The notes beneath the pieces were generated by a model. The model made no database searches, was not told the origin of the DNA, and saw only the letters and a list, made by a program, of their open reading frames with translations. The position numbers were made by a program, and so were the translations under genes. Positions 1 through 34,081 of a stretch of DNA of 64,000 bases are shown one piece after another. The stretch is from assembly GCA_963737635.1 (NCBI GenBank), contig CAVTTL010000001.1:1664001-1728000 (forward strand). Direction: 5' to 3'. Source of the DNA: an uncultured Methanoregulaceae archaeon (GTDB taxonomy: Archaea > Halobacteriota > Methanomicrobia > Methanomicrobiales > Methanospirillaceae). Within the stretch, counting starts at the first letter, position 1. Each line of letters begins with the position of its first letter.

Positions 1-84
1 GATCTCATTCGTAAAATGTGTAGGGATAGTAAATAAAACAGTAATTACAGTAACATTTATATCAGTAAAAGTCGTACAAAATGA

Positions 85-852
85 GTGGTAGAAAGGAGTG
101 CTAAAATGAAAGTTGGTACGTATGAAATACCTGATTACAGATTAATCCCGACAATGATTGAATCAACAAAAATAATTTATGACAAGTTTAAGGGAGAAAA
201 CGCTCCTGATAACTTAACTGTGGCAAACTTACTAGGTCACAAATCAGTGAGTGGCTCTCTTCTCACAAAACTTGGCAACCTTAGAAGTTATGGGTTAATT
301 GAGAAACGTGGAATTAAAGTCACGGAACTAGGAAAAAACATTACATATCCTATAAATGAAGAGGCAAGAGATGAGGCTATAAGACAAGCTATTTTGAATA
401 TCCCGTTATGGGCGGAATTATATAGAAAGTTTGGAGTAAACTTACCGAGAGAAAACTTTTGGGTGGATTTAAAACAAATTACGGGTTTAGAAGCCCCAGA
501 ATCGCAAAAACTCGCCGATATGGTTCGGAATTATTATATAGACGACACAAAATATCTTAATATTGTCGAGAAATCCGTCCCGCCCGCAGATTCAAAATCA
601 CAACAAGCGCGCGCAGAGGATACGAACGATAGAAAAGATGTTATGGACACATTGCAAGTCAATCTAAAATCTGGGACGATCCCCTTCACACAGTTCCAGT
701 TTGGAGAATCTAAAGTTGTAATTGCAGACAGAGCGCACTTGGACATTATCAGTGGTTTCCTTTCAAATTTGAAGGACACCTTAGACAAACAAAACATCCC
801 ATTGGGAAAACCAGAGTGCAAACCAGAAGGAACGAAAGAAAACAAAATCTAA
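85..852 (+). CDS. Hypothetical protein with probable N-terminal winged-helix domain (AT-rich, accessory)
   Basis: 255-aa ORF (ATG at 106 also possible); pattern VANLLGHKSVSGSLLTKLGNLRSYGLIEKRGIKVTELG is wHTH-like; TTTATA box near 56-61; lower GC than core genes. Confidence 0.6.
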   Translation: MVERSAKMKVGTYEIPDYRLIPTMIESTKIIYDKFKGENAPDNLTVANLLGHKSVSGSLLTKLGNLRSYGLIEKRGIKVTELGKNITYPINEEARDEAIRQAILNIPLWAELYRKFGVNLPRENFWVDLKQITGLEAPESQKLADMVRNYYIDDTKYLNIVEKSVPPADSKSQQARAEDTNDRKDVMDTLQVNLKSGTIPFTQFQFGESKVVIADRAHLDIISGFLSNLKDTLDKQNIPLGKPECKPEGTKENKI

Positions 853-868
853 TTTATTAAAAACAAGT

Positions 869-956
869 GCCGGGATCGCCAAGTTTGGCATGGCGGCTGA
901 CTTATAATCAGCTAATCCCCCCAAGGATTTCGTGGGTTCGAATCCCACCCCCGGCG
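869..956 (+). tRNA. Class II (long variable arm) tRNA with Ser-like body and UAU anticodon
   Basis: Manual fold: acceptor GCCGGGA/CCCCGGC (A7-C66 mismatch), D stem GCC/GGC, anticodon stem GCTGA/TCAGC with loop CTTATAA, 19-nt variable region with AATCC/GGATT stem, T arm GTGGG-TTCGAAT-CCCAC, discriminator G. Confidence 0.85.
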
Positions 957-1231
957 TTAATAGATTATAGTTCTCAGCTAAGAAAAATCTTTCTGTGTTA
1001 TCCTGTTTCTTTTGGTCGTGTTACTTTCTCCATATCCCGCGGAATATCCTACCGGTAAAAAGTCTGTTGAAGTAACAAATTCTGATAAGGTAGAACTCGA
1101 CAATGCGTTTGAATTGAAATAATAATTTGTTTCGATCCAAATATTATTTTCGTTCTTTTAGTAGTCATTAGTAGTTGCGTGATACTGCTCTGAAATTCGT
1201 GTAAAATCGTTCAATTCCTTCAAATAGTGTT

Positions 1232-1696
1232 TTAAAGCTGTTCGTTTATCTGAGCGTCCGCCGGCTCTTTTTTGTATTTCCCGCCGGGGATTGTGGGAAG
1301 AACATGTGTACCCCTGTCAGACGACACAATGACTGCCGATATTCTCGGCCTGTTTTTCGGGCAGTATAACACCGCCCCGGGACCCTCAATCCGCAGCAAA
1401 TCCTTGAGCTCTGCAACCGCCATGTCCCTCCGAAACATCCCACGGTGACGGCGATAGTCAGGCTTCACCTGTACAGGCATCAGACTTCGCCGACCTCTGC
1501 CCTCGATCAACGAGAAAAGGTCGGGTACTATGTTGTAGCGTAAAATGGCATCGTGTCCTTTGAGGTGCGCATGGATGTGGTCCCCCGTCCTTTTATATAA
1601 GGAGATACACGTTTTTTGATCTGTGACGCGAGGATCGGAACCCCGCACGCGTTCTTCTTTCAACGAGCGAGCCCGATGTCCCACTGTATCCAACAT
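1232..1696 (-). CDS. Hypothetical protein (uncertain)
   Basis: 154-aa ORF only; no recognisable motif. Confidence 0.3.
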   Translation of the reverse strand: MLDTVGHRARSLKEERVRGSDPRVTDQKTCISLYKRTGDHIHAHLKGHDAILRYNIVPDLFSLIEGRGRRSLMPVQVKPDYRRHRGMFRRDMAVAELKDLLRIEGPGAVLYCPKNRPRISAVIVSSDRGTHVLPTIPGGKYKKEPADAQINEQL

Positions 1697-1759
1697 ATTT
1701 TATTTTCCGCATCGTTGAACCATCCATAGCCTCTATATTATCGAATTTCACAATGTAAT

Positions 1760-2164
1760 TTGATAAGCATGGTATGGATCCAGATATATGATGAGATTGG
1801 GGTAATAAACGATGAAATGATAGAGAAGATCTGTCCTGATACCCCTAAACAATATAAGGAATGGTTTAAGTTTTACGCGTATATTAATGGAGAACCGTAT
1901 TTAATTCATTCTGAGGATTTGCCTCGCAGAATTAATGAAACTATTCAAATAACGGCAGAAATTGTTCCGAATTGTAAAACGGATTTTAATGAAAAACAAG
2001 AAGCATATGAAGAAGCCTTCAAAAACGCTTACTCAGAAATTTATGACGAGGAAAGGAAGATCTTCTCGAAAATAATGTCTGTACTTTTCGAGGCAAAGAA
2101 AACAGACAACAACCAGATCATTAATTTCAGAGATGAGCTTCTCCAAGCGAAAAGTCACGAATGA
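1760..2164 (+). CDS. Hypothetical acidic protein (AT-rich)
   Basis: 134-aa ORF with protein-like composition, followed by a T-run. Confidence 0.5.
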   Translation: MISMVWIQIYDEIGVINDEMIEKICPDTPKQYKEWFKFYAYINGEPYLIHSEDLPRRINETIQITAEIVPNCKTDFNEKQEAYEEAFKNAYSEIYDEERKIFSKIMSVLFEAKKTDNNQIINFRDELLQAKSHE

Positions 2165-2340
2165 TTGACATTTTTTTGACCGGTCAATCCGGCACCATGC
2201 CCCGGCACTCCGGGGAGTACCGCCACAGGATCATGCTCCATGCCTGCTCCTCTTTCTTTGTTTAACACGATGCTTTACACCACACTATCTCTCCCGCCCG
2301 GGGAGAAGTTATCACCGATCAACGCCAACAGGATAATCCC

Positions 2341-2893: not shown

Positions 2894-3006
2894 GGGCATA
2901 TTGTACCCATATCCCCCAAACCACTGGATAACCGGTGGGCAATGAGGGTATATACCTTAAGAACCCATTTTATACGAATAAATCGTTCCGGAGTGGAGAT
3001 GAAGCA

Positions 3007-4852
3007 ATGCGACTTCTTCTGATACATTCAGATTACATCGAATACGAAGCAAAAAAGAAGACGAAGATGGCAGAGGAGGGAGCCGTTCTCGCAGACCGCG
3101 AGGAAGACGCGCTTACCGTCTTTGCCGCAGTTGAGTCCGTCGATGAAGAAGACCTTGAGGGCGTCATCCTCCAGGCTGTTGAGGAAGTAAAAAAGACCGC
3201 TGCACAGGTGAAAACGGACAAGATCGTCATTTACCCGTACGCTCATTTGTCAAACGATCTTGCCCGGCCAGAAGTGGCAGTACCCGTTTTGAATGCCCTT
3301 AAAGAAGGACTTGCCGCAGAAGGATTCGCCGTGAAACGTGCACCGTTTGGCTGGTACAAATCCTTCAAGATCTCCTGTAAAGGCCACCCGCTTTCCGAGC
3401 TTTCAAAGACGATTCTTCCCGGTGAAGAAGGAGAGGCAGTTTCAAAGAAGCTCGGCAAGAAAGAGGTCACCCATGACTGGTTTGTCATAACCCCGGACGG
3501 CACAACCCACGATTATCACCAGTATCTCGATACTACGCCGTTTGGCTGTCTGGTAAAAAAGGAACTGGGTGTCGCTGAACCGACCGGCGGCGAGCCGGCC
3601 CATGTGGATCTGATGCGGGCTAAAGAGGCTCGTCGATTACGAGCCGGCCAGCGACGTCGGATGCCTGCGCTGGATGCCCAAAGGCAAACTCATCCGCGAT
3701 CTTCTGGCCGATTATGTTCTTGCCATTGTCCTCCCCTACGGCGCGACCCCGGTCGAGACGCCGGTCATGTACGACCTTGGCGACAAAGCTATCTACGAAC
3801 ACGCGGACAAGTTTGGCGAACGGCAGTACCGGTTCAAAAGCAACAACCGGAATATGATGCTCCGGTTTGCTGCATGCTTTGGCATGTTCTCGATTATGCG
3901 GGACATGCATATCTCGAAAAATACCCTTCCTTTAAAGATGTACGAACTCTCCACGTACTCTTTCCGGCACGAACAGAAAGGTGAAGTGATCGGCTTAAAA
4001 CGCCTGCGTGCGTTTACCATGCCCGATATGCACTCGCTCTGTACCGATATGCCAGAGGCAATGAAGTGCTTCGAAGAGCAGCTTGCCATTGGCTGGCAGA
4101 CCGGCCGGGACTTCGAGACCCAGCTCGTCGCTGCATTCCGGTGCACAAAAAAGTTCTATGACGAGAACGAAGCATGGGTTAAGAAGATCGTAAAAGACTC
4201 CGGCTGCCCGATGCTTATCGAGATCCTTTCCGAGCGCGTCCATTACTGGGAAGCAAAGATCGACCTCGCAGTTATCGACGGCCAGAACCGCCCGATCGAG
4301 AACCCGACCGTTCAGATCGATGTCGAGAGCTCGACACGGTTCAATATCAAATACTTCAAGGACGATGGTACCCCGGTATACCCGCCTATCCTCCACTGCT
4401 CCCCGACCGGCAGCGTAGAGCGTGTGATCTGTGCGATTCTCGAAAACATCTCGACCCAGAAGGTCCCGGCACTGCCGACATGGCTCTCTCCGGTCCAGGC
4501 CCGTATCGTACCGGTTGCCGAGCGCCACACCCTATATGCGCAGGATATTTGCACGAGCCTCAATTCACAGAACATCCGGTGCGATGTTGATGACCGGGAT
4601 GAGAGCGTGGGCAAGAAAATCCGGGAAGCCGGTATGGACTGGGTACCCTACGTGATCGTTATCGGTGATGAGGAAATGGGCAGTAAGAATCTCACCGTTA
4701 CCATTCGCAGGAAATCCGAGCCGAATAAGCCTTACAAGGAGCAGATGACGGAAGAGACCCTCGCGGCCGCTATAAAGAAAGAGATCGCAGGCAAACCCTT
4801 CCGACCGCTCTATACACCGCGCAAACTCTCCCTGAAAGCACGGTATATCTGA
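3007..4852 (+). CDS. thrS: Threonyl-tRNA synthetase, archaeal type (frameshift near 3625)
   Basis: N-terminal editing domain [13 protein letters not shown]...YPYAHLS...[19 protein letters not shown]; catalytic [31 protein letters not shown]; C-terminal anticodon-binding domain. Confidence 0.95.
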
Positions 4853-5634: not shown

Positions 5635-8600
5635 CTAATCAGCCGGCCCGTTTCTCCACTTCCCCTGAGGGATGGACATCTCGAACCGTGAGCCTGCCCC
5701 GGGTACACCGGTTTCTTTTATCCTGATACCGGTTATGGCGAGGATATCCCGGACAAGAAACAGTCCGAGGCCCGACGTTTTCCCGGGACCGACAGAGGTG
5801 GTATAACCGCGTTCGAAGATCAGCTCTTTTTTGTCCTGCGAAATCCCCACGCCGTCATCCTCATACGTGAGTATACACCCGGTCTCGGACGGTGCAGGGT
5901 AAATCCGGATACGGCGGACGTGTACGCCGTGACGTAGGGAATTGTCGACGAGATTGTAGAGGACTTTGCAAAACATGGGGTCTGCAAAGACCGAAAAACC
6001 CGGTGACGGTTCCTCGAACACAATCGTTCCCAGATCGAAATGCGACCTGATTTCGGCAAGGACCGGTGAGATCGCCTGCCAGACCGGAGCCGTTCCACCA
6101 AGGGATTCATAATCCTTGGTAAATTCAATATGGTGCCGGATGGCTTCGGCAGCGGTTTCTGCTTTGTCTAAATACTCAATCAGGTGAGGGTCGCGCAGCG
6201 ATCCCCTCATGAGATCGAGATACCCCATGACCCCGGTAAGTTTATTCTGGATGTCGTGCCGGGTGATGCTGGTCAGGATCCCCAGTTTGTGGTTGGCATA
6301 GGCAAACGCTTCCATCGCCTGAACCCTGTCGGTAATGTCATACGCATAGATTCGTATGAGATCATACTCCGGGGAAGCACATATGGCCTCCTGGAACGAC
6401 CGCTCATTGAGATGTACTACCCGGGCAGCCACGATCGGTTTTTTCGTATCAGATGCTGTCACGATCTCATCGAAATCAGCCGGGAGAAAGGCAGCAGGAT
6501 CCTCCGCAAGACCAAGACCTGAAAGCACTGTGGTAGTTGCCGGGTTGGCATAGGTTATGGTGCGGTCGGGTTTGGCTTCTACGACCGGGTTGGGATTCAT
6601 ATCCGGGTAGGAGGCTAATTTCCGGATCTCGCGTTCCGCTCTGTTTTGATCCGTCAGATTCGTGATAACGGCAAGAACGTACTGCTCACCACGACTGTCC
6701 AGACGTGTCAGGGATATCCTTGTCTCAAGTGCCGCACCATCACACCTCGTGCCGATCCAGGGGAATACCTGTGTCGTTCCATTGCGGGCGGTCTCAAGAT
6801 ATTTCTGTGCGATCTCAGGAGATGGCTGCCCATCCGGTTGGTCCTTGGGTGCATAATCCGGCAGCACATGCCCGATAAGATCTTCACAGGAACAGGCAAA
6901 CAGCCGGGTCGCTGCGGTGTTGCAGTCGAGGATCCGGTCGCTTATGAGAAGGGCTGCGTCGGTCATGTTCTCAAAGACGGCCCTGTACCGCGCCCGTTCC
7001 TCCTCACATGCAGCCTCAGCCTGTCTGGACGCCTGGATATCGTAACAGGAACAGGTAAAGCAGGCTCCTGTCGAATCGGGAACACAGACCTCGCGGATCC
7101 ACCGGTATTCCCCGGAAGAGTGCCTGAGACGATACGCCGATTCCCACGTCTCCCCGTTTTCAGCATGTTTTCTCACTGATGTCTGGTAATGGTCGCGGTC
7201 ATCCGGATGAATGCCTTCCAGCCAGCCATTCCCCTCTTCCTGCTCAGGAGATCTCCCGGTGAACGCAAGCCACGCCTTATTGAAAAACCGGCTTTCACCG
7301 CCCGCACCGGATTGCCGAACAGGGTGGGAAAGGCCGTCAAGGATAGAGCTATCGTTAAATCCTGCTTCTGCACCCGTGTACCTGCGAGCTGTTTGGCTTC
7401 GGTAATGTCCCGGAGAATCAGGCAGAGCGCCTGCCTGCCTTCCTGATCCTGGAACCGGGCGCCCTCAACACCGGCATCAAACGACGTCCCATCCCCTTTT
7501 ATGAGTCGCAATTCCCCTTTGGCGCATCCCTTCTCTTCACACGTCCTTACGAGTTCGACAAACCGGGGATCTCCGGCACCGGCGAGCCCCGAGCCCCCGG
7601 TCGAACGGAGTGCCTCTTCTGTCCGGCCAAACAACTGGCATGCGGCCGGGTTTGCCGCAAGAATATCGCCTGCCGGTACCGTAATTATGACCGCTGTGCT
7701 CATTTTTTCGAAGAATGTGCGGTACTTTTGCCGGTCTGTTTCAAGAGAATCTGTCAACCGCTTCCGTTCGGTACCATCGGTGATGAAGACACCGATGCAC
7801 GTCCGGCCGTCTGTCTCATCCGGCATTTCCTGGAGGAATAGTTCTACCGGTATGCAGGTACCGTCTTTTTTCCGGATTGTTGTCTCGTAATGCTCGGGTT
7901 TTTTGCACGCAAGAACCTGCAGGAACCGATTCGTATCATCCGATGATGGACCGAGGAGCTGCGACAGCGCAAGCGCAAGCAATTCATCTTCGGTATAGCC
8001 AAGCAGGGTACAGAGAGCTGCGTTTACCGCCCCGGTGCTCCCGTCGGCATGGACCGCGGCAAACGGAAGGGCAGCAGACTCGATCCCGCCTGCAAGGAAC
8101 CGGGTACGTTCCCAACTCCCGTGACCTCCTCTGCCGGCGCGGCGCTGGAGTGTTTTTTTGTCGAGAAGATCGAGTGCGAAAGATACGGTGGTGCCAAGGT
8201 ATGCGAGCACATCTGCATCTTCCGTTGAAAATGCGTACGGTTCACCGGAACAAAGGGTAATGATACCTACGATCTCGCCTTTAAGCCGGAATGGCACGGC
8301 GGCTAACGACCGGTACCCTTCGCTGAGAGCCGCTTCACCCCACGGTTGTGCGGCGGAATCAGTTTTAACATCGCTGCAGACTGCAGGTGCTCCCGTGCGG
8401 AGGATGTCAGCTGCCAGACTGTACTCCTGATCAGCGTTGATCTCCGGGGAACCCTCGTTCGTTAACCCCTCCCCTGTTCGTGCATGTGCCACCGGCCGGA
8501 GGGTGCCGGCTGCGTGATCGAAGAGCCCGATCCATGCCATACGGATGGTATCGCCATCTACCGCGACCCGGCAGGTTTCAGAAAGCAGCGTTTCCAGGTC

Positions 8601-10552
8601 ACGGACCGTGGGGGCTCTCGCACCGACATGAGCACTAAGTGTGTAGATGCGGTTTGCTGCTTTTATTCTTAAGAGGGTCTTTGTGCGGGAGGTAATCTCC
8701 TGGACTACCCCGATTATCCCGATAACCTTCCCGGTACTGTCACGGAGGGGAGAGAAGATCGATCGGGTCCACCCCCCTTTACCTGAGCCCGGATACTCAT
8801 ACCGGGTATCCGGGGTTGCGACGATCTCTCCGGTAACGGCACGTGCTGCCGGTGAATCCGCACCCGTCTCCTGGAGAAAAGGCAGCATTCCGGCCAGGTG
8901 CTTTCCAAGCGCATCCCGGTCTGCGATGCCGGTAATATCTTCCATCGCCGGGTTCCAGCCCGTAATGGTCTGATCCGGAGTGCAGACGAAGATACCGTCG
9001 CGGGCGCCGGCAATGACCCCGCCCATGGTCAGGGCTGCCGTCTCAAGATCTGCCGTTTTCTTCACCTGTTCGGTGATGTCGGTGAGTGTAACGACCATCT
9101 GGTGAATGTTTCCCTCAGGTGCCTGGAGAGTTGAGCCGCCCATTGATATTGTTCTGTTCCCCTCGGGACCGAGGGAAAAGGGAGCGGCATGGATCCTGCC
9201 GGTTCTCACCAGTTCGTCGAGCGCCTGAGTGAACCGGGCCCGATCGTTGGTACTGATAAAATCAGCAAGAGACTTCCCGGTTATCTCATCTGCGGCACAT
9301 CTGAGGAGCTCAGCGCCTGCCCGGTTGATCCTGATCACCGTTCCCTCAGGAGCGAGGATAAGCTCGGCAAGTGGCGCCTGTTCGAAAAGATCTTCGGATA
9401 CCGTTAGCCTGTCCTTCCAGGATCCCCTTCTGCTCGTGTTCTTTGGTTACATCGTGGATGACGAGCCCGATCTTTTGTGAGGTGCCATCATCGATGACCC
9501 GCGCGGTCACTACCGCTTCCCGGATCCTGCCGTCTTTGGTCCGGTACGTGGTCCCAAAGGTTTTCTTACCTTCCTGCAGGATCTCAGGGATCGTTTCCCG
9601 GATCGTATGCGGCTCATCCGGAACTTCCCAGTCCTGCAGGCCAAGACCCGGGAACTCTTCACAGGTGTAGCCTACCTGGCGGCAGGCTTCGTCATTACAT
9701 TCGACAGGCTTGCCGGTCCCGGGGTCTATAATGAGCATCCCGTCGAAAGAGAGATCCAAAAGGAGCTGGTGCTGAACCGTGAGCCTGCGTACCTGATCGC
9801 TCTCTTTTTTTTCTTCGCTTCTATCCGCCAGCAATCCCTGCCCGCCAAGGAATCGTCCGTTTTCCACCCGGGGACTATACGATGCACGTACAATGTGCAA
9901 TTGCCCGTGGGCATCTGGCATCCTGAACTCAAACGATGCAGGCATGCCCTGTTTCATAGCGGCAAAATGGCGTGCAACTGACGGAATATCTTCGGCACAG
10001 ACCAGGATAGCAAAATCCTTGCCAGTCAGCTCTTTTGGATCGTAACCGAACCCGGTTATGGCGGGGCTTATGTAGGTGATTATTCCCTCTTCATCAAGGG
10101 TAAAGATAACCTCAGTGAGGTGCTCAACTAAGGTCCGGAGTTCCCGTTCTGCTGTATGGAGTGCCCGATCGCTCTGGCGCCGTGCGACAGCCGATCGTAT
10201 CTTTGTCTCCAGTTCCGCAACCTGGGTCCGGGGCGAACCTTTTTTCTGGACATAGAAATCAGCGCCGGAGTTGAGCGCTTCAATCGCTACCTCTTCCCCG
10301 CCATTACCAGTGAAAAGGATAAAGGGCATCCCGTTGCAGCGTGGCCGGAGGTATTTGAGAAGCTCAAGACCATCCATTTCCGGCATCAGGTAGTCGGCGA
10401 CTGAAGGCATGGTACTGTTCTGCCTTGAGTTTTTCGATCGCTTCGCGTGCCGAAATGGCAGTGTCGACGGTAAATTCGCCTCCCCGTTCCATGAAATTTT
10501 TGGTAGCTTCCAGGAGTGCCGATTCATCGTCAACGTATAAGACCGATATCAT
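5635..10552 (-). CDS. Large hybrid sensor kinase: receiver, multiple PAS, GAF, histidine kinase (split by about 3 frameshifts)
   Basis: MISVLYVDDE...DYLMPEMDG receiver; repeated PAS/PAC units; GAF (RMAWIG...RSLAAVPF); HDIQNKL, NLVDNSLRHG and GLGLFLV kinase boxes, spread over ORFs 10364-10552, 9346-10533, 7173-9338 and 5635-7176. Confidence 0.85.
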
Positions 10553-21724: not shown

Positions 21725-22604
21725 GTGCGCACCCCACGATCTCTTCGGGATCAATGCCTTTTTTCCCGTACAGGTCTTTCTTTATGGTCTCGAATATCCC
21801 GATATCCCGCTGCACCGCGCTGCCGATCTCGACGGCACGTGCCCCGGCCATCATCATCTCGACCACGTTGTCGGCTGTCGATATCCCGCCGCACCCTATA
21901 ATAGGGATTTTGCATGCTTCGTAGAGCTCGTAGACGCAACGGATGGCAATGGGAAAGATTGCATCCCCGGAGAGCCCGCCGTAACCGTTGCCGAGGACCG
22001 GGCGCTCGAGTCCTGTCGATATGCGCATGGCTTTTACCGTATTGATCGCGACAATTGCTGTTGCCCCTCCCCGTTCTGCGGCCTTTCCTATTGCCGTGAT
22101 ATCGGTAACATTAGGGGTGAGCTTTACCCACGTTGGCATCCCGAGTACGCTCACTGCACGAGTACATTCCTCGACGAGAACAGGATCGACGCCGATTGCC
22201 GCTCCGTAGCCTTCTGCATGGGGGCAGGAGAGATTAAGTTCGACGCCTGCAGCCATTCCTTTGAACCATCCGGCAACTTCTGCAAACTCAGCGGGATTTC
22301 CGCCAAATATGCTGACGATCACCGGTTTATTCTCGAGCGCCGGGAGCTCTTCGGTGAACTCACGCGAGGGGTTCGGGAGCCCCATGGCATTCAGGATGCC
22401 ATTATCGAGGAGGGCAACACAAGGACCGGGATGCCCGTCTTTTGGCTGCGGGCCAATGGACTTGGTCACGACACCGCCTGCTCCCCGGGCAAGCATCCGT
22501 GACAGGGATGCACCGGTTGTCCCGAGAACCCCGGCAGCCAGAAGGAGGTGGTTGTCGAGAGTCACTCCACCGACCGTCACCGGGCCCGTCCTGAGTACGA
22601 CCAT
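21717..22604 (-). CDS. pyrD: Dihydroorotate dehydrogenase (family 1B)
   Basis: LNAMGLPNP, ELNLSCPH, VKLTPN, GGLSG; overlaps pyrK. Confidence 0.95.
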   Translation of the reverse strand: MVVLRTGPVTVGGVTLDNHLLLAAGVLGTTGASLSRMLARGAGGVVTKSIGPQPKDGHPGPCVALLDNGILNAMGLPNPSREFTEELPALENKPVIVSIFGGNPAEFAEVAGWFKGMAAGVELNLSCPHAEGYGAAIGVDPVLVEECTRAVSVLGMPTWVKLTPNVTDITAIGKAAERGGATAIVAINTVKAMRISTGLERPVLGNGYGGLSGDAIFPIAIRCVYELYEACKIPIIGCGGISTADNVVEMMMAGARAVEIGSAVQRDIGIFETIKKDLYGKKGIDPEEIVGCAHE

Positions 22605-22856
22605 CCATCACAAAGTGGACGTAATGTATTATAAAGGACATCTTTTTTAGTGGATTTACGGGTTCTGGTTCTTATGGAAGTGCTGGAATCTTGAAGACCA
22701 AATGTCATCCCATCATTCCTGATATCACCGTTCTAAAATGGGTTGAGGGTGGCGTGTGTAAGAGCACCTAGTCGGGTGGATTAATGGGTTATTTTGTATC
22801 TCATGCCCCACTGAGGGGAGTGGTCAGCCTCTTTTTCCTGTTGTTTGTATCACCCG

Positions 22857-24518
22857 GTTTCAATCCTTGTTCTCTTGGATGTTTTCCTCGAAGTCGGCGG
22901 TTTTTGTCCACGAGATTTCCTCCTGGCAGTTTCAATCCTTGTTCTCTTGGATGTTTTCCTCGAAGCCGGGTAAGGATCGTTGTCTTTCCGTGCGTTTTGG
23001 TTTCAATCCTTGTTCTCTTGGATGTTTTCCTCGAAGCCATCAAGCCAGTCCACAGTCATGGTTTTAGTCGGTTTCAATCCTTGTTCTCTTGGATGTTTTC
23101 CTCGAAGCATGTCGTTAGGTGTGACGGCATTAGGTGCCCTTGTAGTTTCAATCCTTGTTCTCTTGGATGTTTTCCTCGAAGATTGACGCACAGGGTGAAG
23201 GAGTTGGAAGAGGCAAAAAGTTTCAATCCTTGTTCTCTTGGATGTTTTCCTCGAAGTTTACGGGGCCTTCTATGGCCGTGTGTCGCATCAGTTTCAATCC
23301 TTGTTCTCTTGGATGTTTTCCTCGAAGGATACACAGTCATTAGAGTCGCAGGCCAATGCGGGTTTCAATCCTTGTTCTCTTGGATGTTTTCCTCGAAGAT
23401 AGATATCCATGAGACTCACGCAATCGATCCGGGTTTCAATCCTTGTTCTCTTGGATGTTTTCCTCGAAGAACCATCTGTTCCTTATCATCACCGCGTCAA
23501 TCACTGTTTCAATCCTTGTTCTCTTGGATGTTTTCCTCGAAGGTCGATCATTCGACGGTCAATCCTTGTTCTCTTGGATGTTTCCTCGAAGTCCGACGGT
23601 CGACAATGTGTTTCAATCCTTGTTCTCTTGGATGTTTTCCTCGAAGATGCTGTGGACGGGTGGATGTGTCGCTGACCCGTGTTTCAATCCTTGTTCTCTT
23701 GGATGTTTTCCTCGAAGTTTTGCGCAGGCATTATGAGTCCTGTGATTGGCAGTTTCAATCCTTGTTCTCTTGGATGTTTTCCTCGAAGACTTTATTACAT
23801 GCAAGAATACAGAGGGTGTTTTATGTTTCAATCCTTGTTCTCTTGGATGTTTTCCTCGAAGCCGTAGACAAGAAAGCATTTGTGGTATTAGATTCAGGTT
23901 TCAATCCTTGTTCTCTTGGATGTTTTCCTCGAAGTGACACCCATGATCCGTTGGGCCGCCTCGATCATGGTTTCAATCCTTGTTCTCTTGGATGTTTTCC
24001 TCGAAGATCAGCGATCCGGTCAGCATGGTGATCACAGCTAGTTTCAATCCTTGTTCTCTTGGATGTTTTCCTCGAAGTGCATAGTCCGTCGATTGCAGTC
24101 GTCGATGCATGTTTCAATCCTTGTTCTCTTGGATGTTTTCCTCGAAGCAGTCATGCCATCGATTGCCAGCTGCATCGAGTGATAGTTTCAATCCTTGTTC
24201 TCTTGGATGTTTTCCTCGAAGACTGTGCATTGATCAGTGCACTGGCGATCATGACCATGTTTCAATCCTTGTTCTCTTGGATGTTTTCCTCGAAGATCGT
24301 CATGTCGATGATGACTGCATGACTGATCAGATGTTTCAATCCTTGTTCTCTTGGATGTTTTCCTCGAAGATCGTAGCTCAGATCTGTCATACATCGATCG
24401 ACATGGGTTTCAATCCTTGTTCTCTTGGATGTTTTCCTCGAAGTCAGTAGCTGCTGCATCGATGGCACGACCAGATCGCAGGTTTCAATCCTTGTTCTCT
24501 TGGATGTTTTCCTCGAAG
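22857..24518 (-). CRISPR. CRISPR array: 24 repeats (one degenerate) and 23 spacers; 37-bp repeat CTTCGAGGAAAACATCCAAGAGAACAAGGATTGAAAC
   Basis: Direct repeats GTTTCAATCCTTGTTCTCTTGGATGTTTTCCTCGAAG on +, first at 22857 and last at 24482; spacers 33-38 bp except two of 15 and 18 bp; ATTGAAAC 3' end and leader position give minus orientation. Confidence 0.99.
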
Positions 24519-24623
24519 GCCGCCTAATTTTGGCCCTTTTCGGCTATATCTCAGTTAAAATGCTCAGATTTCCCGCATGAAATTCTTCATGCAAAAGTAT
24601 TGATTCCTATTTAAGGATAAGAA
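24519..24623 (-). promoter_or_regulatory. CRISPR leader
   Basis: AT-rich non-coding stretch between the cas4 stop and the first repeat; TATA-like TTAAATA on minus; GCATGAA/TTCATGC inverted repeat. Confidence 0.75.
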
Positions 24624-25214
24624 TCAGGTGCAAATCGTGCCGTAACAGCAGTCAATACACTTGTTTTTGTATTTGCTCTTTGTCGGATAAAATCCTTTGT
24701 CGATAATTTCTAGAATCTCGTTGACTATCTCAACGCCCCGGTCGAAATCGTTTCGGTTAAACTCAAGCGTTTCGATATGGTTGTTACTCCGGGTAAAGCA
24801 GATGAAACCCCGTTTCACATCAAGATTATAATTTTCTTTGATCATGATCGCATGGAGCACCAGCTGGTACTTATAGGTCGGGAAGATTGTATCCTTGAAC
24901 TCCGCGTACTTGTACTCGAACGGAGCGGCTGTACCGTCATCAAGAATGAGAACTTCGTCAATAATCCCCTTGATATGGTGCTGCTTTGACGCAACAAAGA
25001 CATTCATCTCCTTCTTTACGACACCAAGCTTTTTTCGCAGGTACTCGGGGTTCGTGACCAGTTTCTTCTCATGCACTTCCCGCCCTTTCATCACCTTGAA
25101 TCGCAATTCCTGATGCTGAGGAATATCAAGGCAGTGCATGTAGTAGATGAATCGCGGACAGAACAGGTACTCAAGCACATCGGAGATCGTGATGATCGTT
25201 TCGCTGTCTGTCAT
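24624..25214 (-). CDS. cas4: CRISPR-associated Cas4
   Basis: EYLFCPR, GIIDEV, EYK, YQL, C-terminal CIDCCYGTIC Fe-S motif. Confidence 0.95.
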   Translation of the reverse strand: MTDSETIITISDVLEYLFCPRFIYYMHCLDIPQHQELRFKVMKGREVHEKKLVTNPEYLRKKLGVVKKEMNVFVASKQHHIKGIIDEVLILDDGTAAPFEYKYAEFKDTIFPTYKYQLVLHAIMIKENYNLDVKRGFICFTRSNNHIETLEFNRNDFDRGVEIVNEILEIIDKGFYPTKSKYKNKCIDCCYGTICT

Positions 25215-25220
25215 GGAAAT

Positions 25221-25514
25221 TTAGAAAAATTTTGTGAGCAGTTCGTCGCTCACCAGTTTCCGGTCGAATGCCTGCCCGAGCAGTTTTACTTTCCTGAAGG
25301 ATTCGTCATCCATCGGGAACACATAGACCGAATCGACCTTTGGATCGATCTCCTGCTCGCACTCCAGCGCAAGGGAATCCCGCTCGTTTGCATTCAGGTT
25401 CCCCAGAAACACGCTCTTCTGCACACGGTACAACCCTTTATTCTGGCAGATCTGCGATACATGACTCCTCGCCCGGTTCTTTGCGATATCGTACACTACC
25501 CAGACCATTGTCAT
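25221..25514 (-). CDS. cas2: CRISPR-associated Cas2
   Basis: VVYDI, RVQKSVFLG, DSVYVFP. Confidence 0.95.
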   Translation of the reverse strand: MTMVWVVYDIAKNRARSHVSQICQNKGLYRVQKSVFLGNLNANERDSLALECEQEIDPKVDSVYVFPMDDESFRKVKLLGQAFDRKLVSDELLTKFF

Positions 25515-25526
25515 TCATTCACTCCC

Positions 25527-26501
25527 TTACCCGGATTTGATCAGTCCGTTTGCGATACGGTGGCATTCCATCTGGATCGTATTCCTGATCTTCACGTTGC
25601 GGCCATGGTACTCGATTTCGCGGTCGAGCATCTCGTTGAGCGCCGCAATGAGGAGCGTTTTTCCCTCCTTGTTCATGTACAGCCCGCCTGGCACCGGATC
25701 AAAGAGTGCCGGCGTCACCTGTTTTTTTGAGAAGAGGTTCACCACAGTCCGGTCAGCATGCACCCGGAACAGTTCGATAAGATCGAATACGAACGAACGC
25801 TTGTTGTAATTGTCGGTGTGCAGGAACCCCACGTATGGGTCGAGCCCCGCGATGATGCACGCGCGTTCGACCTGCGAGTAGAGCACGCCATACCCGTAGT
25901 TGAGCAGGCAGTTGAATCCGTCCTTTGCCGGATCCCGGCTCCGTCCTTTGAACTTCCACTGCTCGGGCATAATGTTGGCAATCGCATCGAAATACGCCGC
26001 AGATGCCATGCCCTCCACCCCCATGATCGAGCCGCGCCGCGAGTCAAGCGATCCTTTCAGGGCAAGAAGAGTTTTTTGCAATTCTTCGATCTTTGCTATG
26101 GAGAGGTCAAGCTGGTCTTTCTGATCGGGCCGGTTCTTCTTGAGGTCTTTTAAGAGATCGATCTGGTTCTGGATCTTCTCCGCGATCCAGCCCCGGGCCA
26201 GATAAAAACCGGTGTCGGCAGATTCGGCTTCGAGCTGGCGGCGGCGGATCAGAGTAGTGCTGCCGAGTTTTGAGTGCCACACGCGCCCGAACGGGTTGCC
26301 GTGATAATCAAGGAAGATGATGTCGATGTTGTTCTCGACCGCAAATTCGATCGCGTCGGTTGTAATGGTCGCGGATGTCGTGATGAGGATGCTGTCAATC
26401 TTGTCCGCGGAGACTTCAACGATTTTTTCATCGTTCTTGACCAGAAAACAGTTCTTTTCCTTCTTGAGAAACGCACCCCGGGTATTGATGACCAGCTGCA
26501 T
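25527..26501 (-). CDS. cas1: CRISPR-associated Cas1
   Basis: MGVEG, NCLLNYGY, GLDPYVGFLH, FDLIELFR. Confidence 0.97.
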   Translation of the reverse strand: MQLVINTRGAFLKKEKNCFLVKNDEKIVEVSADKIDSILITTSATITTDAIEFAVENNIDIIFLDYHGNPFGRVWHSKLGSTTLIRRRQLEAESADTGFYLARGWIAEKIQNQIDLLKDLKKNRPDQKDQLDLSIAKIEELQKTLLALKGSLDSRRGSIMGVEGMASAAYFDAIANIMPEQWKFKGRSRDPAKDGFNCLLNYGYGVLYSQVERACIIAGLDPYVGFLHTDNYNKRSFVFDLIELFRVHADRTVVNLFSKKQVTPALFDPVPGGLYMNKEGKTLLIAALNEMLDREIEYHGRNVKIRNTIQMECHRIANGLIKSG

Positions 26502-26504
26502 GAT

Positions 26505-27180
26505 TCAGTCCTTTTCATTCTTTAATGTGAGTTGTTTTACCGCCCCAAACCCGCGCGAGACGGATTTGCCGATGCCAAGGTAATCGGGGATCAGGAAATT
26601 TGCATGGAATTTCCCGGTGAAGGTCATGACGCTGACATCCTTGAGCCGGTCTTTCTGGAAATGGAGATTCGTGTCGCATTTGATCATACCAGGAACCTCG
26701 TATCCTAGCGATTTTGACATGGAGATGATGTTCCCGATCAGGATCTTCCGGACGAATTCGTCCCGCTCCTCTTTTCCCTTGAGCGTATAGAACCTCTTGT
26801 AATTCTCCTGGTTGAGCGCAAGCCACGGAGTCACAAACTCGTACGACCGGATCGTGTCCGAGATCCCGAACTCCTCGTCTTTGAGTGCGATACCCCGCTC
26901 GACAATCTGGTAGGTGTTCGCACCCAGCCGGATTTCCTCGGTACTCGTCGTAGATCTTTTTGAGGACTTCCGCACCTTCATTGATGCCGATGACGGTAGG
27001 GATTTCTTTAATCATCTTGTACTGGACGACCGGGTACCGGTAGATGAACTTGTCAGCGTTGTGCTGGTGGAGTTCGGTGTACTCGGCAAACTTCGTGGCA
27101 AAGAATCCGCGCAGTTCGGGAGCAGTACCGTGGATCGGACGTGTCGAGCCAAGGGTCAAGGTGAAGGTGTGGAGGATCAT
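26505..27180 (-). CDS. cas6: CRISPR endoribonuclease Cas6 (Cas6b-like; frameshift near 26940)
   Basis: LRGFF, YRYPVVQYK, YEFVTPWLALNQENY and terminal Gly loop GIGKSVSRGFG, across two overlapping ORFs. Confidence 0.9.
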
Positions 27181-27184
27181 ATGA

Positions 27185-29641
27185 TCAACAGAGAATTGTA
27201 CTACTTTTTGAACTCGTTAAATCAATATCAAATCCGACGCCGTCTTTATCGTATAACCGCTCATCCAAAATACGGAATGGTTCGCTCGTATTATTTATCT
27301 GTAAATCTTCCGGCCGTATTTTCATCCATGGTCCAAATCTAATATTAACTGAGCAATTTGCGATACGTTTACCAAGTCGTTTCATTTCATATCTCCGCAT
27401 CCATCTGTCTTTAATGGTTAATGCGTTTCGGATATCCGAAGGTAATGTATCATCCAAAGATGAAACTATAAATTGTTCCTGATGTTCGTCATCTCTTAAT
27501 AACTTTTTAATATTAACAATTTGTTCATTCTTGGTATCCCGGTTAATGCAATGTGTGTAATTGGCATATGCGGATACCACTTTCATTGATTGATTTAATT
27601 TCTGCTGAACTAATGAGAAGTAGAGAGTCCCGAGTTTGTAAAAATCCTTCTCGGGAATTTCTGGTTGTGAGGTCAGACTCCGATTCGTCTGTTCAAGGAG
27701 AATATTATCATAAATCATTGGAGAGAATTCCCGTCCTTTTTCATTAATCAGGGAGACTATTTCGATAACACTCTCTTTCTTTTCACCGTTGCGGTTACAA
27801 CGACCACAAACCTGAAAAATGGAATCTAATGGTGCATGATCACGAATGATAAAATCTGCATCAATATCCACACCGGCTTCTATACATTGTGTAGTAACAA
27901 TAACGGGATTTTGATGTTTTTCAATACATTTCTTTATCTTACAAACCCGCTTGCATCTTTCAGAGGGTGTAACATAAGATGAGAGATATATCAACGGCCG
28001 TAACTCAATGATGCCCTCTTTTATTAGGCCCTGTATTTTTTTGTGAATTAATTTACTTGAATCCCTCGTATTCATTACCAACATGACTGAGTTATCTGAG
28101 TATTTCTTGAGTAATTCTGGAAGGTTATCACAAAACAAATCAAGTGCTATTTTTTCAGGTTTTATCTGAAGTTTAACTCTCTTGCGATTTTCAAAATAAC
28201 TTGTATGGTAAGGAACTCGTTCTACAATTCCCGGGAAAAAACCGGGTTGGGTTGCAGACATCAGAACAAGATGGGTTTCACCTACTTCAGAGAGCGTCCT
28301 GAAAAAAAATTCAAATGGCTTCCAGAGTTCAGAAGGTAACGCTTGGATTTCATCGAATACTATAATTGCATTAAAAAGATTATGAAATCTCATAAGGGGT
28401 TTAGATTTTAATGAAAATATTGAGTAGAGCACTTGATCAAAGGTGGATACGATAATTTCAGAGTTCCATATGTTCAAGAAAAAGTCAATCGAATTATTGC
28501 TACGTTCATTATCATCAATACCGTTTTTGTATTCGAAATCTGCAATGGAATACCGGGGCATGTACAACCGGTCTTTATGAATTTCGTAAAGTCCGGATAA
28601 GAACTTCTTATATTCCGTATCCGTTTGTTCAATGATCGAAAGAAATGGCAGGGCAACAATAATTTTTGGAGTGAATTTTTTTTCCAGTTGAATTCTCTCT
28701 CGCAGCTTCAACGCCCACGATGCAGAGAGTAATGTTTTCCCGAGGCCGGTCGGTAACGTAATAGAATGAAGGTGTTCATTCAATGGAAAAAGACTAATAT
28801 TGCTAATCGTTTGTTGGTATGCCCGTATTCTCTCTTCGTTGATTACACCGGTTTTATTGAAATTTTTCAGATAATTGTCAACAAGATCAGCGGGAATGTC
28901 TATTGCATTCCGTTCATATTGATCTGGATTATCAGAGGCCAGATAAGCTTTGTCTGCTTCCAGAAGAATGGAATACAGCAGCAATGCTAAAATTCTCTGC
29001 TCAACATATTTTGATAATTCGGAAGGGTTATGATCATCGAAATTTGGGTATTTTCCATGTAGTTTTCGAATTTTACTTTGGATTGAATTAATAGACTCTT
29101 CATTGAATCCTTTTCCCTGCTGAAGATTTACTCCGGATATGGTATAATTAAAAAATTCCGGGTTAATATTCTGGAGTTGCAAAATCAACAACTCGGATTT
29201 TATATCACATTCTTTCCGGATCTCCTCAATGCTCTTGTACCTGCCGTGATGGCCTTCTATTGCCAGAAATACTGCAAGAGGCAAAAAGGATCTCCAGCGA
29301 GGTTCAATATGAGCGTTTTTCTCTTCAGATAGCCAGAGTTCCACCATATGCCAACCAAAAAAAGCGGACAGAAATGCATGTGATTTTTCGTCATCGCTTC
29401 CTTCGTAACGAGTATTATTCACCTTGCTCATAATGTATTTTTGAAAAAACAAGGAACTTTTTGCAAAATCATGACACACACCTGTGATTTCACATAATTC
29501 GCAAATTTCTATTTTGGAAAGTCCATTAAAATTCAGGTGTTTCTGGCTGATAAGATAATGAGAGACCGTACTTACCTGTGAAAGATGCTCAAAGAGTTTT
29601 AAGGGGGGATCAAGTGGATGAGAAATTAGTGAATATTCCAC
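27185..29641 (-). CDS. cas3: Cas3 HD nuclease-helicase
   Basis: LFEHL, CHDFAK, GHHG, LPTGLGKT, FDEIQ, MSATQP, EAGVDID, QVCGRCNR; GTG start at 29641 preceded by GGTGA. Confidence 0.93.
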   Translation of the reverse strand: MEYSLISHPLDPPLKLFEHLSQVSTVSHYLISQKHLNFNGLSKIEICELCEITGVCHDFAKSSLFFQKYIMSKVNNTRYEGSDDEKSHAFLSAFFGWHMVELWLSEEKNAHIEPRWRSFLPLAVFLAIEGHHGRYKSIEEIRKECDIKSELLILQLQNINPEFFNYTISGVNLQQGKGFNEESINSIQSKIRKLHGKYPNFDDHNPSELSKYVEQRILALLLYSILLEADKAYLASDNPDQYERNAIDIPADLVDNYLKNFNKTGVINEERIRAYQQTISNISLFPLNEHLHSITLPTGLGKTLLSASWALKLRERIQLEKKFTPKIIVALPFLSIIEQTDTEYKKFLSGLYEIHKDRLYMPRYSIADFEYKNGIDDNERSNNSIDFFLNIWNSEIIVSTFDQVLYSIFSLKSKPLMRFHNLFNAIIVFDEIQALPSELWKPFEFFFRTLSEVGETHLVLMSATQPGFFPGIVERVPYHTSYFENRKRVKLQIKPEKIALDLFCDNLPELLKKYSDNSVMLVMNTRDSSKLIHKKIQGLIKEGIIELRPLIYLSSYVTPSERCKRVCKIKKCIEKHQNPVIVTTQCIEAGVDIDADFIIRDHAPLDSIFQVCGRCNRNGEKKESVIEIVSLINEKGREFSPMIYDNILLEQTNRSLTSQPEIPEKDFYKLGTLYFSLVQQKLNQSMKVVSAYANYTHCINRDTKNEQIVNIKKLLRDDEHQEQFIVSSLDDTLPSDIRNALTIKDRWMRRYEMKRLGKRIANCSVNIRFGPWMKIRPEDLQINNTSEPFRILDERLYDKDGVGFDIDLTSSKSSTILC

Positions 29642-29652
29642 ACGGATCACCG

Positions 29653-30418
29653 TTACAGGAATGTAATGTTCTTTTTTTCGAACTGATATGAATTCCCACG
29701 CATATTTGCCGGAATTGGAGATACAGCCATATTGAGGACATAAGCTTTTGTATGAAAATTTCCGCTCTTTATCGCCAATATGAGGTACTTTCAACTCCTG
29801 AATATTATACCTTTTATTAGAGGTAATTTTTTTGAACACTAATGAGCACTCGTCTTTCGCTATGACAGTTGAGATTTCCCTTTCTCCGGGACCCAGAAAT
29901 GACGCTACATCATCGGAGAGATATTCTAACGTTGCAAGGAACTCAGATAGTCCCATACAAGGGGTGTAGACCGATCTTTCATTTTTTAGTCGGGATTTTA
30001 ATTCGTCCATCCTATCAGTCAAATTTACGTAGAGGATAAAACTGGGATCTCGCAATAGTTCCATCGGAATCTGAGTTGCAGTATTCGAAGCCGGAATTCT
30101 TTTCAATGGTTTGAGGAGTTTTTCTTTTTTTGATATTTTGATCGAATAATTAATGTCGCCGGAACTATCCTGCCTGAAATTGGTTACATGGGTGATTGTT
30201 TTAATCTCTTTTTCAATTTCAACGCCCACTTTCATATTTTTATCTCGGGAAAATTCAGAAATGTTATCTTTTTGTATTCCAAGAATTGCTCCCAGCAACC
30301 CTGCAATTGCCGGTCTTGGCGGAAAGGGGTACGTTAAGGAGGACACATTGCTGTACGGTTTCCTGAAGTGTCCGTATTTTGCCTGATACCTGATCGCAAT
30401 TACTGGAATGGATTCCAT
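29653..30418 (-). CDS. cas5: Cas5 (type I-B); read-through into cas3 is probably caused by a 1-bp error near 29748
   Basis: YGHFRKPYSNVSSLTYPFPPRPAIAGLLGAILG and YTPCMGLSEF; removing one A restores the C-terminus YKAYVLNM...KKNITFL* (TAA 29653-29655). Confidence 0.9.
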
Positions 30419-30425
30419 ACAATTC

Positions 30426-33484: not shown

Positions 33485-34081
33485 GCAATCTGCCCGAGCC
33501 CAGCAAAAAATCATTCAAACCAAATGGCGTACAGAATCAATCCCCACATTTTTATTCAACACTCCCCTATTTACCTCTCCTTCTCATAAACCTAGCGACT
33601 CGCAACGTGAAAGTGACAGCCACAGTACTTTCTCATTTTTAGCCCGGAATAAAAACAATCTGGTTTTGATGAGTCAGAGGAGTTCCCGATCTGTACTCCT
33701 TCCGGAGAAAATCCTCCACAGACCCCTTAGCTATTAGAATCGATGCACAACATCATTTGTCGCTGAAACGGTCGAGATCGCAAGACCGTACTGACTGGTA
33801 AGGGAACCCACGCCCCTCCTCGTAAATCTCTTGTGGAGATCGAATCGGGGAATGTGCATTCTCTTTTGAGTCTCTATCAACTGCTTGTGCAGCCCCGTGT
33901 CCGGTATCGGCGATTTTGCCGACTGTTCCCTTTTGATTACCAGTAATTTTGTTTTCACCACCCAATCTCATATAAGATTTAATCCTCTATCAGGATCTGT
34001 CGGTTTGCGTCGTCTAGACGTTAAATCGTCAAAATCGATGGATCAGGACGATCCCGTCGAGTTCAGATCGCCTTCTGATCC

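Follow-up and report, generated by a model that had tools for sequence, protein, structure and literature searches.

The window, by which we mean the whole 64-kb stretch of archaeal DNA analysed here, corresponds to C1:1664001-1728000 of its host assembly and opens inside a low-GC island. There, a gene for an uncharacterised winged-helix protein of ~250 amino acids (aa) is followed directly by a class II transfer RNA (tRNA) gene with the anticodon UAU, and it is this pair that concerns us. The island spans ~3.6 kb (about C1:1662600-1666250; window positions 1-2250 by GC profile), and the AT-rich setting noted in a preliminary description of the locus is evident from a GC content of 0.345-0.43 over C1:1663001-1666000 against 0.50-0.60 in the surroundings. 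The protein gene (P0001; from ORF listing, homology and AlphaFold) occupies positions 85-852 of the plus strand as an intact open reading frame (ORF) of 255 aa, its start probably lying at 106 (MKVGTYEIP...). A spacer of 16 nt (853-868, plus strand) separates its stop codon from the 5' end of the tRNA, which lies at 869-956 on the same strand. Behind the tRNA, an AT-rich trailer (957-1033, plus strand) with an inverted AGAAA...TTTCT motif and runs of T may serve as a terminator. In a blastn comparison with a locus from the same genus (G028), tRNA and trailer together align at 73% identity over 171 columns, with no homology 5' of the tRNA; conservation of the trailer is weaker when all seven trailers are compared. 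Two further island ORFs, at 1232-1696 (minus strand) and 1760-2164 (plus strand), have no match in Pfam, PADLOC or NCBIfam, a protein atlas gives only unnamed archaeal clusters, and no direct repeats of 14 nt or longer, as marks of an attachment site, flank the island.

The tRNA is the only one called by ARAGORN within the window (868-957, anticodon tat), and Rfam RF00005 matches 869-956 on the plus strand over the full model (1-71) with 50.9 bits (E 5.5e-08; gathering score 29). When parsed, it has a 7-bp acceptor stem and a 5-bp T stem (a 7/5 fold). The acceptor stem GCCGGGA/CCCCGGC forms six of its seven pairs, with a mismatch at A7·C66, and is followed by U8 and C9, a D arm of 17 nt containing G18G19, and a G at position 26. 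The anticodon stem GCUGA/UCAGC closes a 7-nt loop, CUUAUAA (901-907), in which TAT at 903-905 (plus strand) gives the anticodon UAU, reading AUA. The variable region of 19 nt (913-931, plus strand) consists of a U, a 5-bp stem AAUCC/GGAUU with the loop CCCCAA, a U and C48; the T arm reads GUGGG UUCGAAU CCCAC, and the discriminator is G73, at position 956. The landmarks of the tertiary fold (U8, A14, G18G19 and the T-loop UUCRANY) are all present. A hidden intron or an alternative anticodon was ruled out, as 88 nt leave no space for one and the loop is a canonical 7-mer.

An assembly error was likewise ruled out, since independent contigs are identical and UAU is kept among homologues. A Logan contig from a run of another study (X4) spans 226-951 with 0 differences, and further Logan contigs (X3) span 448-922 and 904-1300, the sole difference in 1-1300 being at position 1215; in all, the tRNA sequence is unchanged in contigs from runs of three further studies. 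None of the runs listed with this sequence is an RNA run. The cloverleaf, the TAT at 903-905, the 19-nt variable region with its stem, G1-C72 and G73 that the preliminary description had reported are thus all real features of the DNA, as is the canonical 7/5 fold by which it had set the molecule apart from bacterial allo-tRNAs, and the anticodon matches independent data with no difference across the tRNA.

The body of the molecule is of the serine type. The host, whose genome (2.46 Mb in 4 contigs, 51.6% GC) has a complete standard tRNA set including intron-bearing genes according to ARAGORN, provides four tRNA-Ser (GCU, CGA, GGA, UGA) and five tRNA-Leu, from which a Ser model (R2) and a Leu model (R3) were built, besides one tRNA-Ile(GAU). 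On R2 and R3, respectively, the window copy (G000) scores 72.2 and 52.3 bits. Among its homologues, introduced below, the values are 78.5 and 58.2 for G004, 75.7 and 48.2 for G001 (anticodon CCA), 62.6 and 45.8 for G057, 62.3 and 47.0 for L022, 55.7 and 41.6 for G028, 58.2 and 52.5 for G319, and 59.9 and 53.8 for G692, so that the Ser model prevails in 8 of 10 members. For calibration, the Ser model gives true tRNA-Leu 44-50 bits, and the Leu model gives true tRNA-Ser 46-52. A family model (R1), built from seven sequences of which the window tRNA is one, ranks the window tRNA first in the host genome (98.4 bits), followed by the four host tRNA-Ser (77.2, 71.2, 71.1 and 61.2), two tRNA-Arg and then tRNA-Leu (50-58); tRNA-Ile(GAU) and an Ile-like tRNA with anticodon CAU reach 49.8 and 52.9, below all four tRNA-Ser.

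Individual positions agree with this assignment. G73 is found in 9 of 10 members and in all four host tRNA-Ser, against A73 in all five host tRNA-Leu; all ten members have G1-C72 and nine have G30-C40, the window copy being among them in both cases. Its variable arm is laid out like those of the host's four tRNA-Ser (U44, stem, one unpaired base, C48), while in host tRNA-Leu the variable region has 14 nt with two unpaired bases ahead of C48, the D arm is longer and the discriminator is A73. Apart from G7A, the window copy has the acceptor stem of host tRNA-Ser(UGA), and G001 has that of host tRNA-Ser(CGA). The long arm and G73 are also unlike a tRNA-Ile body; host tRNA-Ile(GAU), like the CAU tRNA with its Ile-like body, has A73. 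Only by its anticodon does the window tRNA fall outside tRNA-Ser (NGA or GCU), carrying UAU instead; the anticodon is not an identity element for seryl-tRNA synthetase (SerRS). The serine-type body and the tRNA-Ser-like 5' end proposed earlier therefore stand, on model scores, G73, G1-C72, G30-C40, variable arm and acceptor stem alike. Parts of PMC9976931 count G73 and G30-C40 among the strong determinants for the two SerRS types of Methanosarcina barkeri, and name A73 together with a specific variable arm for archaeal leucyl-tRNA synthetase; G1-C72, too, is among the elements given there for archaeal and bacterial-type SerRS.

The UAU tRNA is an addition to the host's decoding set. Archaea normally decode AUA with tRNA-Ile2(CAU), which is modified to agmatidine by TiaS. 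The host has three CAU tRNAs, one of which has the same anticodon stem and the same T arm as tRNA-Ile(GAU) and is, judged by this likeness, a candidate tRNA-Ile2; it also encodes TiaS (PF08489, 138.7 bits, an open frame of 424 aa) and a SerRS with the bacterial-type N-terminal domain Seryl_tRNA_N. With host tRNA-Ser, the tRNA-Ile2-like CAU tRNA, TiaS and SerRS all present, the UAU tRNA is extra and not a replacement. An origin as a hybrid, through integration into a host tRNA-Ser, was ruled out: the four tRNA-Ser are intact, the sequence differs throughout and there are no attachment-type repeats. ARAGORN also calls a selenocysteine tRNA, tRNA-SeC(tca), at C1:623973-624068 and a tRNA-His(atg) at C1:1924866-1924940 in this genome; neither appears among the 36 tRNAs that the family model matches there, and both are probably false positives.

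Ten distinct sequences of this tRNA family were collected (G000, G028, L022, G319, G057, G004, G001, G439, G564 and G692), of which eight carry UAU, one UAA (G439) and one CCA (G001). With the tRNA as blastn query, 61 relatives yielded a single close copy (G028), whose anticodon arm is identical to that of the window while its acceptor and D stems are different and fully paired. A 20-nt pattern of the anticodon arm returned, from genome contigs, G028 again and two non-tRNA matches, from viral contigs 0 matches, and from metagenome contigs three stretches: one identical to G028, a third variant (L022) and a chance match. Searching through the neighbouring protein added G319, G057 (another family of the same order), G004, G001 and G439 (another family of the phylum). 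Finally, a degenerate pattern matched 5 of 401 genomes of the phylum, among them the known G000 and G004, a non-tRNA match in G441 and the new copies G564 and G692; the reversed control pattern had 0 matches. Pattern searches require UAU by construction. However, the five copies found only via the neighbouring protein include three with UAU, one with CCA and one with UAA, so UAU recurs also where the anticodon played no part in finding the copies. Its conservation among homologues (8 of 10) was one of the checks that the preliminary description had set.

Conservation in this family concerns both the fold and the decoding loop. In an alignment of seven homologues, 95.2% of cells are paired and 14 of 21 pairs have changed on both sides, values reached by 0 of 500 shuffles, whereas slid alignment registers give 37-50% pairing. 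C32, U33, R37, A38 and the 7-nt loop are found in 10 of 10 members, as are the 7-bp acceptor and 5-bp T stems, and UAU occurs on six different anticodon stems. The UAA copy and the window copy have the AAUCC/GGAUU variable stem in common. Stem covariation beside an invariant loop frame points to selection on both the tRNA fold and the decoding loop. The distribution is sporadic: of 108 genomes from the genus, 5 have the family at E <= 1e-16, a count in which 40 candidates were scored per genome and weak copies may be missed, and the family model discriminates poorly, the UAA copy scoring below ordinary tRNA-Ser on it. The homologous loci all lie within GC dips, except G564, where the whole region is low in GC, and they are found near insertion sequences (IS) and Panacea-domain, ParB-N, toxin-antitoxin and restriction-modification genes. 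The family is conserved in fold and decoding loop, sporadic and mobile-looking.

The protein upstream of the tRNA belongs to a family of its own. P0001 has no match in Pfam, NCBIfam or PADLOC, but shares 31% identity (E 1e-34) with the ORF that ends 8 nt 5' of the L022 tRNA and is homologous to ORFs at 9 further loci; the eleven ORFs cluster and align. Of 401 genomes from the order, 11 have a member of the family (G115 being weak and outside the cluster), and it occurs in at least 36 clusters of a large protein collection, nearly all unnamed, one being labelled PadR-like and one coming from a Bathyarchaeota metagenome-assembled genome. The AlphaFold model of P0001 (mean predicted local distance difference test score, pLDDT, 74.4; residues 1-150 confident) has a winged helix-turn-helix and a helical domain, followed by a disordered linker and a small beta-hairpin-helix domain. 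Foldseek gives weak matches to regulators of the MntR/MarR type (best E 0.032, to MntR; template modelling (TM) scores 0.22-0.41), and a profile search of the Protein Data Bank (PDB) found nothing significant (best E 0.025).

Sixteen loci with a member of this protein family were inspected for what lies downstream. In seven (G000, L022, G319, G057, G004, G001 and G439) a co-oriented class II tRNA with a non-Ser anticodon follows after 8-56 nt, so that the linkage is conserved. A degenerate tRNA-like gene with a 6-nt anticodon loop follows in one (G192), a ParE-family toxin gene takes the tRNA's slot in two (G327 and G019), two have nothing of the kind (G261 and G369), and four have ordinary host tRNA genes nearby or none (G037, G447, G466 and G484). 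Conversely, the tRNA stands without the winged-helix gene in G028, G564 and G692. The presence of ParE in two loci suggests, by association only, that the downstream position is a slot for a harmful effector. In these two loci ParE lies 19 and 56 nt behind the winged-helix homologue (L041, that is G327, 8364-9345, minus strand; L039, that is G019, 9373-10526, minus strand), and a conserved 61-aa ORF, which looks YefM-like and has no Pfam match, is convergent to it. Complex prediction for the G327 winged-helix homologue and the adjacent ParE gave no verdict either way (score 0.00). The G327 locus borders directly on the end of an rRNA operon (23S, two 5S and tRNA-Cys).

Several smaller features accompany this arrangement. 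In L022, L035 and L036 the ~40 nt before the 5' end of the tRNA hold a conserved hairpin-like element, CUCC-GAUGAUACU...GUUGA-GGAG(A)G, which overlaps the end of the winged-helix ORF and is kink-turn (GA/AG)-like, and G004 and G001 have a different conserved hairpin, CCCAU(U)AUGGG, at the equivalent place. In G004 (L037, 9395-9468, minus strand) a second, short-arm tRNA with A73 (Rfam 55.4 bits) lies 13 nt downstream of tRNA(UAU); its anticodon loop has 8 nt, ARAGORN assigns the four-base anticodon CCCC, and it is shaped like a +1 frameshift-suppressor tRNA-Gly. The tRNA-like gene of G192 (L042, 10269-10342, plus strand; Rfam 42.8 bits) lies 137 nt behind the winged-helix homologue, with a restriction-modification pair upstream.

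Transposase genes follow the odd tRNA in six loci, always co-oriented and 297-419 nt behind it (L035 10365-11549, L036 2285-3481, L022 1620-2810, L082 4995-6215, L017 13898-14533 and L042 10686-11852). They represent at least four IS families: IS6/IS1-like in G319, G057 and L022, IS5 in G439, rve-type in G028 and DDE_Tnp_1 (IS4-like) in G192. A 2.0-kb block spanning gene end, tRNA and transposase is shared at 76% identity between G319 and L022. Such repeated proximity may reflect a hot spot of insertion or some functional connection. No transposase lies beside the window copy, though the same IS families are present elsewhere in its host, with four full-length and two partial copies of the IS6/IS1-like transposase and three of IS5 type. 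As the host has several IS copies but a single tRNA of the family and a single winged-helix gene, the tRNA is not part of an IS6/IS1-like element, and this candidate was ruled out also because the two copies in G319 share the ORF span only. Dependence of the neighbouring transposases on AUA was excluded too, as they contain 1-7 ATA codons in ~400.

Codon use differs between the island and its host. In host ORFs of at least 300 aa (n=937), ATA occurs 9.7 times per 1000 codons (13% of Ile codons) and TTA 4.7 times, against 20-45 and 7.5-40 per 1000 in island genes; overall, AUA and UUA are enriched 2-8 times in low-GC foreign DNA over host genes. This bias is compatible both with a role in codon supply and with a codon-biased missense weapon. 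It does not extend to a private code. The preliminary description had allowed for a recoding role; that AUA means serine in the element's own genes was rejected by codon alignment: for 63 ATA codons in 11 aligned winged-helix genes, the residues aligned in other members are I/L/V/M/F in 318 of 519 cases (61%) and Ser in 18 (3.5%), much as for ATT/ATC (984 of 1562, or 63%, and 56 of 1562, or 3.6%). ATA aligns with hydrophobic residues, and AUA=Ser in the module's own gene can be discarded.

What the locus carries is a decoding-competent surplus tRNA on a serine-type chassis, set in mobile-looking DNA and coupled to a winged-helix gene. From its sequence and relatives, we lean tentatively, and at slightly less than an even chance, towards a functional accessory tRNA of a mobile module: a seryl-charged missense tRNA for AUA controlled by its winged-helix neighbour. 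The module would be a small mobile unit, sporadic in Methanoregula and other Methanomicrobia, in which a regulator-like gene is followed after 8-56 nt by the class II tRNA. Gene and tRNA would be transcribed together, the 16-nt spacer being too short for an obvious separate promoter, and RNase P would release the tRNA. The host's bacterial-type SerRS, blind to anticodons, would then charge it with serine, and the seryl-tRNA would compete with host tRNA-Ile2 and insert Ser at AUA. By keeping expression of the operon low or conditional, the winged-helix protein could place a missense, or toxic, tRNA under regulation. With AUA and UUA enriched 2-8-fold in low-GC foreign DNA, such a tRNA would strike AT-rich invaders more heavily than the host. 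Charging blind to the anticodon is argued for most strongly by a single chassis that carries the anticodons of three amino acids, which fits a synthetase that ignores the anticodon.

A bolder extension of this proposal, to which we assign a low probability, is that the genetic code itself serves as a weapon or switch, with a winged-helix repressor holding back a predicted seryl-tRNA for AUA (for UUA and UGG in the sister copies). On release, hydrophobic residues would be replaced by Ser, preferentially in AT-rich invaders that use these codons several-fold more than the host. If true, a convergent class of long-arm, AUA-reading tRNAs on mobile elements would extend across domains, including this family, bacterial allo-tRNA(UAU), nematode nev-tRNA(UAU) and phage long-arm tRNA(UAU).

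A number of observations weigh against serine insertion by a regulated tRNA. In the winged-helix family itself AUA is 2-4 times as frequent as in the host and falls where relatives have hydrophobic residues, and efficient Ile-to-Ser decoding would harm the module's own product. Two members, G439 (46.9 bits on the Ser model, 50.4 on the Leu model) and G564 (50.7 and 59.5), score slightly higher as tRNA-Leu; they are the two most distant, coming from other families of the phylum where the host-specific R2 and R3 models fit poorly. G692 has U73 and is the sole member without G73. Three of the eight UAU copies have G37 instead of A37, and G37 is unusual among decoders of codons that start with A. 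The A7·C66 mismatch is found in the window copy alone (1 of 10). Weak fold similarity, as the sole basis, makes the winged-helix protein at most regulator-like. Long-arm tRNA(UAU) also occurs in phages: a degenerate pattern matches 112 viral stretches in IMG/VR (loci L083-L194), and in 51 of the 80 viral loci listed ARAGORN calls a total of 58 tRNAs with anticodon tat, 87-97 nt long and mostly inside tRNA arrays. Among 59 distinct long-arm tRNA(UAU) sequences compatible with a 7/5 fold, eight of which are the archaeal loci of this analysis, 40 have A73 and 36 encode a 3' CCA. With A73 so common in the phage copies, a long arm and UAU alone are no proof of serine. Lastly, allo-tRNA(UAU) were inactive as suppressors in Escherichia coli, and passages of Mukai et al. 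2017 (PMC5389517) suggest that they are not used in translation.

This inactivity, together with the links of allo-tRNAs to transposon and toxin-antitoxin genes reported in parts of the same paper (PMC5389517), lends some weight to a different explanation, in which the molecule is a tRNA-shaped RNA that does not decode: an element for 3' processing or stability of the mRNA, a decoy for, or partner of, an enzyme or toxin that targets tRNAs, or a landmark for transposable elements. The tight coupling to the upstream ORF (gaps of 8-56 nt), the co-oriented transposases of at least four families behind the tRNA in six loci and the odd neighbour tRNAs with 8-nt and 6-nt anticodon loops at two loci would all suit such a role. 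Yet the loop frame (C32, U33, R37, A38, 7 nt) and the anticodon are kept while the stems drift, which would not be expected of an element with a purely structural or processing role, and U8, A14, G18G19 and the T-loop UUCRANY are all retained. We regard a non-decoding RNA as unlikely, if the most serious competitor.

Slightly less probable still is a tRNA for codon supply, by which a low-GC element would bring decoders for the host-rare codons AUA and UUA, charged cognately with Ile and Leu. Phage-borne tRNAs are thought to be charged in this way despite their unusual bodies, and the viral copies, common within tRNA arrays and mostly with A73, offer a precedent. Nine of the ten anticodons (eight UAU, one UAA) read the codons most enriched in island genes, and AUA stands for a hydrophobic residue in the linked genes. 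The chassis speaks against it, since G73 is found in 9 of 10 members of the archaeal family and A73 never, while host tRNA-Ile and tRNA-Leu all have A73; with Ile, Leu and Trp anticodons on one chassis, three synthetases would have to accept it. The member with anticodon CCA reads UGG, which is not a rare codon, and the host already has tRNA-Ile2 and TiaS. The UAA member lacks both A73 and a Leu-type variable arm, the archaeal Leu determinants as given in part of PMC9976931.

That the window copy is a decaying pseudo-tRNA, a relic in a degraded island, is very improbable: the A7·C66 mismatch peculiar to it and an island with no transposase and two ORFs without relatives or family would fit, but only one pair is affected, and a single weak 7-66 pair does not by itself disable a tRNA, the copy scores 98.4 bits on the family model of which it is part and 72.2 on the independent Ser model, the upstream gene is intact at 255 aa, and the identical sequence recurs in contigs from three further studies' runs.

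The proposed seryl-tRNA has several parallels among known systems. The closest are the bacterial allo-tRNAs, among which three anticodons, UAU included, predominate and allo-tRNA(UAU) forms the largest group, and some of which are toxic or inactive, as described in portions of PMC5389517. Like them, the archaeal family combines a Ser-type long-arm chassis with a non-Ser anticodon, predominantly UAU, is sporadic, has transposon or toxin-antitoxin neighbours (IS, Panacea-domain and ParE genes at homologous loci) and comes from soil or peat-type samples. However, allo-tRNAs are bacterial and have 8/4 or 9/3 acceptor/T stems, while the archaeal family is 7/5 and linked to a winged-helix gene. The window tRNA is not an allo-tRNA, as it lacks the defining 8/4 or 9/3 structure, but by analogy it may work like one.

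Nematode nev-tRNAs, which include nev-tRNA-Ile(UAU) and nev-tRNA-Gly(CCC), are reported to be charged with Leu in vitro (PMC3333845, PMC4300185). Nev-tRNA-Ile(UAU) resembles the archaeal family in being a lineage-conserved class II tRNA with UAU that raises the question of natural code ambiguity; nev-tRNAs are eukaryotic, nuclear and Leu-charged, whereas the archaeal family is Ser-like (G73) and resides on mobile DNA. The UAU tRNAs of Nanoarchaeum and Korarchaeum are ordinary short-arm tRNAs with A73. They share with the window tRNA a genome-encoded UAU that reads AUA, but in those archaea tRNA-Ile3(UAU) replaces tRNA-Ile2(CAU), as stated in part of the tRNAscan-SE 2.0 paper (PMC8450103), while in the present host tRNA-Ile2 and TiaS coexist with a long-arm G73 UAU tRNA.

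Serine chassis with swapped anticodons are known from yeasts. In Candida, tRNA-Ser(CAG) is a fixed nuclear reassignment. In laboratory yeast, tRNA-Ser with the Ile anticodon GAU is lethal upon accumulation (PMC6125640, in part). Both share with the reading proposed for the archaeal family the logic of an anticodon-blind SerRS, Ser misincorporation often being toxic; unlike these constructs and reassignments, the archaeal gene is natural, horizontally distributed, accompanied by a regulator-like partner and known here from sequence. The phage tRNAs, finally, also combine UAU, an extra arm and mobile DNA, but are mostly A73 with encoded CCA, in many cases have an AGAU motif in the variable loop and lie in tRNA arrays, while the archaeal family lacks AGAU and lies behind a winged-helix gene.

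A full-text literature search of article bodies turned up no account of a long-arm tRNA from archaea that bears an Ile anticodon. Compared with known Ser-chassis missense-type tRNAs on mobile DNA, the present family is new in being archaeal, in its canonical 7/5 fold and in its operon-linked, regulator-like gene. To our knowledge, few natural tRNAs violate the codon table, and we know of none that is mechanistically understood outside a few yeasts and Streptomyces. Here, a compact and conserved archaeal system consists of one protein gene and one tRNA, its 7/5 fold should be accepted by standard translation factors, and natural variants offer three anticodons on the same chassis. This makes it testable whether mobile elements mistranslate deliberately and why AUA-reading long-arm tRNAs recur on them. 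Should the tRNA be charged with Ile or not decode at all, it would nevertheless represent a new mobile-element-linked tRNA family, alongside a new family of winged-helix proteins.

Two further observations concern the remainder of the window. Threonyl-tRNA synthetase is encoded by two overlapping plus-strand ORFs in different frames: the first (2935-3984, 349 aa) has the archaeal editing domain, and the second (3674-4852, 392 aa) combines the class II core with the anticodon-binding domain. A frameshift, a gene that is truly split or an indel from assembly could each account for this. A second, larger low-GC stretch lies at 22001-34000, with a GC content of 0.37-0.49 and an AT skew down to -0.27.

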